A stretch of 34,343 bases of DNA from NCBI GenBank assembly GCA_031393845.1, contig JANMWF010000014.1, positions 1 through 34,343 of the forward strand, in the 5' to 3' direction. The notes beneath the pieces are model-generated. The model was not told the DNA's origin and searched no databases. It saw nothing but the letters and a program-made list of their open reading frames with translations. This DNA is from Nitrosomonadales bacterium (GTDB lineage Bacteria; Pseudomonadota; Gammaproteobacteria; Burkholderiales; Gallionellaceae). The position numbers and the translations under genes were made by a program. Positions 30-4,519 of this stretch are shown piece by piece; positions within the stretch are counted from its first letter, which is position 1, and every line of letters starts with the position of its first letter.

Positions 30-56
30 TAAAGTCTTGCCATTGTCTGCCGATAA
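30..56 (+). promoter_or_regulatory. sigma28 (FliA) promoter, copy 1
   Basis: TAAA(30-33)-N15-GCCGATAA(49-56), exact match to the FliA consensus. Confidence 0.85.
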
Positions 57-62
57 CACAAA

Positions 63-100
63 TAGAGGCTTGAATTTGCCCCCTTGCAGATTCAATTTTT
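63..100 (+). ncRNA. Candidate small antisense RNA: hairpin with CCCCUU loop followed by a U-tract
   Basis: Stem 70-79/86-95 (one G-U), loop CCCCTT at 80-85, then TTTTT at 96-100; lies just downstream of a sigma28 promoter; complementary to the flhD RBS. The 5' end is estimated. Confidence 0.5.
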
Positions 101-172
101 CAATAAAAATACATATATTTCAATTGTTTGATGTAAAATGCATACCAAGTGAAATATATTTTTAAATATAAT

Positions 173-199
173 TAAAGTTTTGCTATTGTCTGTCGATAA
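173..199 (+). promoter_or_regulatory. sigma28 (FliA) promoter, copy 2
   Basis: TAAAGTTT(173-180)-N11-GTCGATAA(192-199). Confidence 0.8.
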
Positions 200-205
200 C
201 AAAAA

Positions 206-343
206 TGTAAGCTTGAATTTGTCCCCTTGCAGATTCAGGTAAGCATGTAATCCTCCACTTAAACCTGATACGAGTAAGCAGAGGCTTGTCTATCCGTGTA
301 GGAAAGTTTCTTACAAAGAGATCAGAAGTCTTCTGATTTCTTT
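206..343 (+). ncRNA. Candidate sRNA or 5' leader, copy 2 (anti-RBS hairpin 211-240, possible terminator hairpin 315-343)
   Basis: Stem 211-222/229-240 with loop CCCCTT; 217-235 pairs with 393-411; boundaries are inferred. Confidence 0.4.
315..343 (+). terminator. Hairpin, possible terminator or attenuator upstream of flhD
   Basis: aaagagatcagaa-gtc-ttctgatttcttt, 13 bp stem with one G-U and a U-rich 3' side. Confidence 0.4.
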
Positions 344-412
344 CTGTTCGTCCGTGTAGCAATATTCAACCGTCGAAAAAGACAGTGTTGTTAATTTGCA
401 AGGGGACGAATC

Positions 413-733
413 ATGAATACAGATCAACTTCATCAAGAAATTAAAGAAGCCAATCTTTCTTATATGTTGCTTGCGCGGCAGATGATTCAGGAAGACAAGG
501 AGGCAGCTATTTTTCGTCTTGGCATTAACCAAGAAATGGCTGAACTCATCGCCGGCTTAAGCTCAGCACAATTACTCAAAATGGCGGCATCCAATATGTT
601 GTTGTGCCGCTTTCGCTTTGATGAAAAGCTTCTGCTCAATATGATTACCGATTACAACAAGAACAGGATGATGTCGCAAGCACATACCACCATCCTGATG
701 GCTGGGCAGCCTTTGGAGGCTCTAGCTGCTTGA
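413..733 (+). CDS. flhD: Flagellar master regulator FlhD
   Basis: EIKEANLSYMLLARQMI..D...AIFRLGI and LLCRFRF motifs; upstream of flhC; RBS AAGGGG at 400-405. Confidence 0.97.
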   Translation: MNTDQLHQEIKEANLSYMLLARQMIQEDKEAAIFRLGINQEMAELIAGLSSAQLLKMAASNMLLCRFRFDEKLLLNMITDYNKNRMMSQAHTTILMAGQPLEALAA

Positions 734-762: not shown

Positions 763-1320
763 ATGCGAAACAAGAGTGTTGTCACTGAAGCTTACCAAAT
801 CCAGATCGCCGTGGATTTAATCAAGCTAGGAGCACGTTTACAATTGCTGCAGGAAGAAACCGCTTTAAGTCGTGAACGTTTGCTTAAGCTGTACAAGGAA
901 ATAAAGGGTGTTTCGCCGTCCAAGGGTATGCTGCCCTATTCAACCGACTGGTTCATGAGCTGGTCGCCTAACATTCATTCTTCGCTATTTATGGACATTC
1001 ATCAGTTTATGCTGACGCATACCCGCTTAACGGGCGTTGAGGCGCTTATTAAAAGTTATTGTTTATACCTTGAGCAAATCAATGCTAGCGGCGATGAGCC
1101 GATATTGAGTGTTACACGTGCATGGTTTCTAGTACGGTTCTTTGATGCAAAGATGCTGCAACTGACAGGCTGCACTGAATGTGGTGGACATTTCATAGCG
1201 CATGCCAATGGACTGTATGCCGACTATGTGTGTGGCATATGTCGTCCACCCTCTCGTGCCGGGAAAACAAAAAAGAACGCCGTAGCATCAAGTTTGTTGG
1301 CATTAAGTATGGCGAATTAA
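763..1320 (+). CDS. flhC: Flagellar master regulator FlhC
   Basis: LGARLQ, KGMLPYSTDWF, Zn ligands CTECGG...CGIC, PPSRAGK. Confidence 0.97.
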   Translation: MRNKSVVTEAYQIQIAVDLIKLGARLQLLQEETALSRERLLKLYKEIKGVSPSKGMLPYSTDWFMSWSPNIHSSLFMDIHQFMLTHTRLTGVEALIKSYCLYLEQINASGDEPILSVTRAWFLVRFFDAKMLQLTGCTECGGHFIAHANGLYADYVCGICRPPSRAGKTKKNAVASSLLALSMAN

Positions 1321-1344
1321 AGTTTTATTATCGGGTGCCGTTAC
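1318..1344 (+). promoter_or_regulatory. sigma28 promoter for motAB, overlapping the flhC stop codon
   Basis: TAAAGTTT-N11-GCCGTTAC. Confidence 0.75.
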
Positions 1345-4090: not shown

Positions 4091-4519
4091 ATGAAAAAAA
4101 CTGTTATGAATCTAGCTATCGTTTCCTGTTTTGCATTTGGCATTTCATTAGCGCAAGCTTCTGCCCATGGAAATGGGCATGAAGCTGCCAGCACTGATGA
4201 TGGGCATGCTCATGATACGTCGGGTAACTATTTCAAGAAAGCAGATATAAGTGGTCAAGCACAAAATATTAAGGTTGATGCTAAAGGAGTTCGCCTTCCC
4301 TATAACATGGCTGCAGACATGCCAAGTGTAGGTGATAGCGAGCATGGGGTAAGGGCAATGCATGGCCAACCCGATCCATACCGTGTAGCCCATAATGTAG
4401 CAAAGCCAGTAGTTGAATCCAATAAGAATTGGTGCATGGTAGGAACTAATAATCCATCAGGATCTTGCTTTAATGCATACCCTACTAGTTCTGGAAGAAA
4501 TTATTATAATGCCAGATAA
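4091..4519 (+). CDS. Hypothetical secreted protein with His-rich N-terminus
   Basis: Strong RBS TAAGGAG; Sec signal MKKT...LAQA; HGNGH..GHAHD; two Cys near the C-terminus. Confidence 0.8.
   Translation: MKKTVMNLAIVSCFAFGISLAQASAHGNGHEAASTDDGHAHDTSGNYFKKADISGQAQNIKVDAKGVRLPYNMAADMPSVGDSEHGVRAMHGQPDPYRVAHNVAKPVVESNKNWCMVGTNNPSGSCFNAYPTSSGRNYYNAR

Follow-up and report, generated by a model that had tools for sequence, protein, structure and literature searches.

In the flagellar cascade FlgM is exported, after which FliA (sigma28) is free. To our knowledge, the RNAs known to pair with flhD mRNA respond to outside signals, those known to depend on sigma28 have targets other than flhD, and almost no regulatory RNAs have been described in iron- or nitrite-oxidising bacteria. 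The stopping of flagellar synthesis is less studied than its starting, as stated in the accessible text of PMC10578931.

The closest described systems are CjNC1/CjNC4 of Campylobacter (CJnc10, CJnc170 = FlmR), for which the accessible parts of PMC4626219 and PMC11187230 were used. These are sigma28-dependent short RNAs, often present as two paralogs, whose terminator stem is more variable; their conserved pairing region is complementary to ribosome-binding sites of an earlier flagellar tier, a feedback on the cascade has been proposed, and partial, Hfq-independent repression was seen in E. coli reporters. The RNA unit described here shares with them a sigma28 promoter motif and a conserved region complementary to the ribosome-binding site of an earlier-tier flagellar mRNA, a complementarity that is weakened in 12 loci of one genus (g4). 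In contrast, the Campylobacter RNAs have, so far as those parts of the sources go, several sigma54 class II targets, hosts without FlhDC and genes located away from most targets, whereas the unit has a single predicted class 1 target, flhD, lies directly 5' of it, carries its seed in a hairpin loop and in one clade uses an FlhDC-box promoter. Membership in the CjNC1/CjNC4 family was rejected on three grounds: there was no Rfam match, flhD was the single top target, and the sequence pattern was confined to one family of bacteria (f1) bar one flgM promoter. Judged by its sequence, the unit would work like CjNC1/CjNC4 but is not a member of their family.

In E. coli, UhpU, MotR, FliX and FlgO are also FliA-dependent and tune flagellar synthesis, and UhpU reaches flhDC, raising FlhDC indirectly through lrhA. 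They are UTR-derived, unlike the flhD unit, and none is reported to pair with flhD mRNA in the accessible text of PMC10578931. Base-pairing with flhD mRNA is a property of ArcZ, OmrA, OmrB, OxyS, McaS and AsflhD (PMC10578931 and PMC11187230, accessible parts). No Rfam match links the unit to the Hfq-dependent RNAs of this kind (ArcZ, OmrA/B, OxyS, McaS). AsflhD is encoded antisense to flhD, and this type of cis-encoded antisense RNA was excluded by the position of the unit, which shares the strand of flhD and lies 5' of it with no overlap. In Salmonella, FlhDC activates RflM, which in turn represses flhDC, and the class 2 promoter variant of the unit is predicted to follow this logic; RflM is a protein repressor of transcription, whereas the unit is an RNA predicted to block translation (PMC3946378, accessible part).

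An Rfam search, suggested in the preliminary description of this DNA, returned just three chance matches (E 2.7–4.8) in positions 1–1600 of the window (the whole stretch of DNA analysed, 34,343 nt) and none at gathering score in five related loci. A riboswitch or known cis-regulatory leader was rejected on the lack of an Rfam match and on the conservation pattern, in which only the loop is near-invariant and no aptamer is conserved beyond the anti-Shine-Dalgarno (anti-SD) sequence. No description of this RNA was found in the literature search, outside which lay most subscription papers and the supplements of RNA-motif screens, and none is among the RNAs given in the accessible part of a 2026 review (PMC13432727). 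Sigma28-dependent feedback sRNAs are known already; the class 1 target, the tandem location and the FlhDC-box variant are likely new here.

The duplicated unit upstream of flhD

The window makes up the initial 34 kb of its contig, in a genome of 2.04 Mb (94% complete), and the FlhD that it encodes shares 99% identity with the protein of a Candidatus Nitrotoga sp. The relatives' family, f1, is Gallionellaceae according to record titles. Downstream of the RNA element the gene order is flhD, flhC, motA, motB, and fliA, flgM-flgN, flgB, fliE, flhB, fliL and hfq are all found in the genome. Its sole Flagellin_N match is low-scoring and located where the contig with the flg operon ends, so that the actual flagellin gene is probably missing from the assembly. 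A 142-aa ORF at 4091–4519 of the window has a signal-peptide-like N-terminus, a His-rich segment and no Pfam match. An HDOD-domain gene of the same genome (L318:128–1663, G000:C49) is preceded by a sigma28-type motif. The features around flhD are collected in Table 1.

Table 1. Positions, in the window, of the RNA units and of the elements surrounding flhD
Feature	Position	Strand	Remark
Sigma28 (FliA)-type promoter motif, copy 1	30–56	+	motif match; also at flgM
Anti-SD hairpin, copy 1	70–95	+	loop CCCCUU at 80–85; then U5 at 96–100
Sigma28-type promoter motif, copy 2	173–199	+	conserved position, about -240 from flhD start
Predicted RNA gene, ~90 nt	206–295	+	two-hairpin architecture in relatives; both ends putative
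Anti-SD hairpin, copy 2	211–240	+	loop CCCCUU at 223–228; antisense stretch 217–235
Second hairpin (252–284) with short pyrimidine tail	252–293	+	terminator-like in relatives, weak here
Palindromic box 1 (TGTAGG...CTTACA)	297–315	.	kept also in flhD loci without RNA unit
Palindromic box 2 (ATCAGA...TCTGAT)	321–337	.	conserved
Likely sigma70 -10 element (CAATAT) of flhD's own promoter	360–365	+	from conservation alone
Target site in flhD leader	393–411	+	SD AAGGGG at 400–405; complementarity to 217–235
flhD	413–733	+	PF05247; single copy found in genome
flhC	763–1320	+	PF05280
Separate sigma28-type promoter motif 5' of motA	1318–1344	+	

The units are direct repeats of 76 nt with 86% identity, spaced 143 nt, of which copy 1 is a partial duplicate without the second hairpin. 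The contig begins 29 nt 5' of promoter 1, and the copy number at this locus is to be read as at least two. Both FliA promoters claimed in the preliminary description were found as motifs, and a sigma28-type motif is likewise present 5' of flgM-flgN in the same genome; their form matches the FliA promoter sequences given in the accessible part of PMC4183435. The hairpins with six-nucleotide CCCCUU loops that had been claimed also fold, and better than shuffled sequences (z = -2.7 for copy 1, z = -5.6 for copy 2), and the loop bases of copy 2 have an unpaired probability of at least 0.98. All coordinates given in that description checked out.

Copy 1 had been described as ending in a U5 tract that would give an RNA of ~40 nt. 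The tract is present, but a conserved 40-nt copy-1 RNA was rejected, because just 2 of the 10 two-copy loci have a U-run after copy 1; for the same reason, the copy-1 transcript probably often continues into copy 2. The second hairpin has an energy of -9.1 kcal/mol in the window versus about -20 to -40 kcal/mol in most relatives, and Nitrotoga-type tails contain just 3–6 U in 9 positions. A terminator-like hairpin with a U-run is found in most Sideroxydans-type and genus-g4 loci.

Conservation of the unit and the promoter of flhD

Alignment of flhD upstream regions across relatives, as the preliminary description had advised, revealed that promoter, hairpin and complementarity are conserved within the family. 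Among the best 80 flhD loci, 4 of them too short to score, the RNA unit was present 5' of flhD in 49 (the promoter being of the sigma28 type in 42 and of the FlhDC-box type in 7). A sigma28 motif was located at -230 to -258 in 43 of these 80 loci, and all but one of the 43 led into a hairpin with a pyrimidine loop, the exception being L064. In the alignment the promoter comes first, then hairpin 1, which bears the anti-SD loop, then hairpin 2 and its U-rich tail, followed by two palindromic boxes, a conserved hexamer and the SD; the unit measures about 80–105 nt in relatives.

A strict promoter-plus-loop pattern was matched in 68 of 301 genomes of the family, representing 8 of 18 genera, and the reversed-pattern control gave 0 matches. 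All 30 matches that were fetched lay directly 5' of flhD on the same strand, 29 by tblastn; L235 was assigned to flhD by its leader and first codons alone, the remainder being masked. No copy distant from flhD was found among these 30, and among 401 genomes of the order the sole match outside the family was a flgM promoter. A model built on 15 Sideroxydans-type sequences (R1) gave no match in five genomes without an adjacent unit, in a run that held no positive control; R1 recovered few Nitrotoga-type copies and missed the window, so that this empty result does not amount to absence.

The stems were analysed by clade. For 15 Sideroxydans-type loci, 18 of 27 pairs had changed on both sides and 91.4% of the cells were paired, a level reached by 0 of 500 shuffles, with slid controls at 36–49%. 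For 15 Nitrotoga-type loci, 10 of 21 pairs had changed on both sides. When 39 sequences from every clade were folded together in a single RNAalifold run, no consensus structure emerged, because the stems diverge far between clades, and structure was therefore assessed per clade. The loop is the only near-invariant part of the unit, the stems turning over around it. On this comparative evidence, the element is a real, conserved, structured RNA, selected as RNA.

In other families (f9, f27, f37, f46, f16), sigma28 motifs were observed 250–700 nt 5' of flhD, singly or as tandems of up to three with AT-rich tracts between them, and lacked an anti-SD loop (L093, L095, L096, L098, L104, L089, L110, L113, L115, L116, L118, L130 and L120). 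The sigma28 units of other families gave no consistent antisense signal: three isolated values were below z = -3, with no loop seed. In L089, GU-rich sequence 3' of the motifs is loosely complementary to the CA-rich flhD leader (z about -1.8).

The preliminary description, which read the region as FliA-driven antisense, had missed the separate promoter of flhD, as well as the second, terminator-like hairpin and the class 2 promoter variant. Box 1 is likely a transcription-factor site of this flhD promoter, and the palindromic boxes together with a hexamer are best read as flhD's own promoter. The hexamer (xAxxxT, ~52 nt 5' of the flhD start) was found in 102 of 109 loci, that is 73 of 77 with the RNA unit and 29 of 32 without it, by a pattern that demanded A2 and T6. 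Since boxes and hexamer persist without the RNA unit, the unit upstream would be a separate gene of ~80–105 nt. A generic sigma70 scan detected no plus-strand promoter 5' of flhD, the -10 call coming from conservation alone, and the flhD mRNA would start near 372. In the clade of the window, box 2 extends into a hairpin with a U-rich tail (315–343), which could be a second terminator. The boxes (297–337) also share a GGA-N5-TCC-like core, ~24 nt apart, and are present in nearly all flhD promoters of the family. Finally, of the 45 unit-bearing loci having motA in view, 31 carry a separate sigma28 motif for this gene, which rules out, in most loci, that read-through is required for motAB expression.

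RNA evidence came from assembled contigs of RNA runs, which hold small shares of the runs, give no ends or strand and may contain DNA. Twenty runs were listed, and eight were compared with the window; X9 and X11 had no match, and none covered 1–94. An X4 contig spans 101–298 and stops there, and contigs of flhD begin at 387 (X1) and 390 (X4), which is weak evidence for a separate upstream RNA. Two contigs cross the proposed boundary, from X13 (263–1168) and X3 (323–540), and reflect either read-through or DNA.

The crossing contigs count in favour of a cis leader, that is, a sigma28 transcript that mostly reads into flhDC and whose 5' loop folds onto its own SD. FliA would then make a translationally silent flhD message and possibly occlude the sigma70 promoter that is crossed, the sign of the feedback being unchanged. 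A leader of 206–445 does fold with the anti-SD paired to the SD, at a probability of about 1.0 and with an advantage of 4.7 kcal/mol over the fold in which hairpin 1 is imposed. The weak second hairpin of the window's genome, the invariable location of the unit directly 5' of flhD on the same strand in the fetched matches, and the sigma28 motifs 5' of flhD in other families go in the same direction. However, most Sideroxydans-type and genus-g4 loci have the strong hairpin with its U-run, the distance from promoter to start is variable (-230 to -346), flhD has promoter elements of its own, and read-through is needless for motAB where motA has its own motif. A predominantly cis-acting leader is, in our estimation, rather unlikely; the strong hairpins with U-runs, and a spacing to flhD that is not constant, speak more for an RNA that is released.

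Complementarity to the flhD Shine-Dalgarno region

The gapless pairing claimed between the copy-2 antisense stretch and the flhD leader was recovered in full, with an 11-nt Watson-Crick run and 19 nt when G-U pairs are counted, and copy 1 showed the claimed pairing with one mismatch, in a 9-nt run. Of 3000 ORF starts drawn at random from the window's genome, 5 had a perfect upstream complement of at least 11 nt. By raw duplex energy with copy 2, flhD ranked second among 22,919 start windows, and by net binding it ranked first of the 1200 best windows (-17.0 kcal/mol, the next being -11.9 kcal/mol). By net energy with copy 1 it was second among the 1200 best of 22,919. Co-folding in trans gave about -15 to -18 kcal/mol net.

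In kissing-loop antisense pairs such as CopA/CopT and RNAI/RNAII, a stable target stem-loop presents the complementary loop. The same geometry had been put forward for flhD, on the basis of a weak hairpin of its ribosome-binding site (394–398/407–411). Unlike the targets in those pairs, this hairpin is predicted not to form, at +0.2 kcal/mol, and is not conserved, and shuffled sequences fold as well as the region itself (z = +0.98); a kissing loop with a folded target was rejected. The SD of a short flhD mRNA is already partly open, with unpaired probabilities of 0.39–0.88. This openness, together with a duplex that covers the SD up to the base before the AUG, argues against a pairing that stabilises or activates flhD mRNA and so gives positive feedback. 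McaS does activate flhDC in E. coli by pairing (PMC10578931, accessible text), but we regard such a role here as highly improbable.

Covariation between loop and SD, another analysis that had been suggested, gave a mixed outcome. At the variable position, the 68 scored loci have U-A (29), C-G (25), a C-A mismatch (12) or other mismatches (2). Further compensating changes were seen in L105, L039 and L030, and in L027, L028 and L032 the pairing is displaced towards the start codon. Own-clade pairing was stronger than cross-clade pairing (-23.9 versus -20.6 and -25.1 versus -19.4 kcal/mol). On the FlhD+FlhC tree (112 rows), however, the SD base at this position changes just twice, and two independent-pair tests, both underpowered, were not significant (median p 0.25 and 1). 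Because of these two points, the covariation is no more than suggestive.

A GGGG-type SD was found in 70 of 77 unit-bearing loci versus 8 of 31 without the unit, kin being not independent in this count (108 loci scored, 4 dropped for short upstream DNA, 25 g4-type loci picked by the loop pattern, six shifted loops assigned by eye). The two loci with a promoter and no loop, L064 and L101, both have an AGGAG-type SD.

These SD types bear on whether there is any antisense function at all. An ancestral sigma28 promoter might have been kept, with hairpins serving just as terminators or stabilisers and the SD match as a by-product. Loop-less sigma28 motifs 5' of flhD in f9, f16, f27, f37 and f46 and in L064 and L101 are compatible with this, as are the non-significant covariation tests. 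It is nevertheless very improbable in our view, given the rarity of an upstream complement of that length at random starts, the retention of the loop while stems turn over, the AGGAG-type SDs of the two promoter-only loci, and the association of the unit with GGGG-type SDs, read with the kinship and loop-picking limits just given.

The 12 loci with the C-A mismatch all belong to genus g4. Promoter, loop and terminator are all retained in them, although in several the pairing with flhD spans just 4–6 nt. In this genus the flhD leader is longer (141–221 nt from box to ATG, versus ~116 nt) and the RNA stays at 81–96 nt with a U-rich tail, which counts in favour of a separate RNA. The retention of the loop despite the mismatch with flhD is the main unexplained result. 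It would fit a broader sigma28-dependent regulator, or a loop that binds a protein, with flhD as one target or a secondary one: the loop is fixed in all 12 loci, the five of these genomes that were checked have one flhD each, hfq is present in the window's genome, and CjNC1/CjNC4 have several predicted targets (PMC4626219, accessible part). Yet there was no better conserved site within flhD-flhC-motA of the mismatched loci, none of the 30 loci that were translated, out of those in the 12 genomes with a start complementary to the loop, was a flagellar candidate, and the next candidate in the window's genome is 5 kcal/mol weaker. We consider such a broader role improbable.

The start site of an HDOD gene in one g4 genome (L288:1514–2353) is complementary to the RNA loop, which makes this gene a possible second target in that lineage.

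Promoter exchange, duplication and the predicted feedback

In one Sideroxydans clade, seven loci have the hairpin without a sigma28 motif (L062, L068, L070, L071, L073, L074, L080), and an eighth, L072, has a decayed loop. They carry a box 26–27 nt 5' of a -10 element that fits the FlhDC consensus, taken from PMC9962212 (six of the seven were scored, L062 being assigned to this class 2 variant by pattern alone). These boxes have 11–14 of 16 matches, versus 9–13 of 16 for flgB, fliE, flhB and fliL of these genomes, with the same spacing. Single boxes are modest, 0–28 of 100 shuffles reaching their score, and it is the fixed position that makes the argument. A promoter swap forced by the loss of FliA was rejected, as all four class 2 genomes that were tested have fliA. 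FlhDC is required by either promoter type, whether directly or via FliA, so that the feedback is negative in both cases, if the RNA represses.

The flhC-motA spacer of L062, L068, L072, L073, L074, L080 and L057 has no sigma28 motif and contains an FlhDC-box-like palindrome with a -10 element, which suggests a wider rewiring from class 3 to class 2 in this clade. A separate flhD clade (L034, L044, L046, L049, L050, L051, L054, L061, L063, L066, L069, L077) has an FlhDC box and -10 element about -220 to -165 from flhD, AGGAG-type SDs, no anti-SD hairpin and no motA found behind flhD; its members are possibly FlhDC-activated flhDC paralogs.

The unit is doubled in ten loci (the window, L001–L004, L011, L013, L016, L053 and L105), scattered over separate parts of the tree. 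In L001, L011 and L016 the proximal copy is decayed, and the distal copy retains the better match to flhD.

The idea of a FliA-driven RNA that occludes the flhD SD, formulated in the preliminary description, is supported by conservation, covarying stems and the rank of the target, and has lost its kissing loop and its ~40-nt RNA. Occlusion of the SD by either route, in trans or in cis, is quite probable, and the unit is likely a feedback repressor of FlhD translation. For the more specific proposal, that a conserved two-hairpin RNA transcribed by FliA pairs in trans with the flhD SD and blocks FlhD translation, our confidence is moderate. The export of FlgM would free FliA, and the ~90-nt RNA would then accumulate. 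Its six-base loop would nucleate on the AAGGGG of a short flhD mRNA starting near 372, and the hairpin would unzip into a duplex of 11–19 bp ending beside the AUG. FlhD translation would be blocked, with negative feedback on the flagellar cascade as a result. The doubled unit of the window's genome would raise the RNA dose. Because its second hairpin is weak, some of the transcripts may continue into flhD, whose SD would then be silenced in cis by this pairing, with no change in the sign of the feedback. In the Sideroxydans clade, the FlhDC-box input would shorten the loop to direct autorepression.

A dedicated RNA gene placed before flhD may thus close the cascade, acting in trans and, wherever termination is incomplete, as a leader that silences itself, and tuned by repeated duplication and by rewiring from a FliA to an FlhDC promoter; we lean only slightly towards this overall view. 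If it is true, an RNA driven by FliA or FlhDC that blocks FlhD translation would be a missing link from class 3 to class 1. The module, at ~250 nt, is short enough to be reconstructed as a reporter, and thanks to the promoter swap found in nature the effect of feedback delay is open to testing in E. coli, in which both activators are present: close relatives would offer a natural comparison of long-delay (FliA) and short-delay (FlhDC) feedback on a common target.
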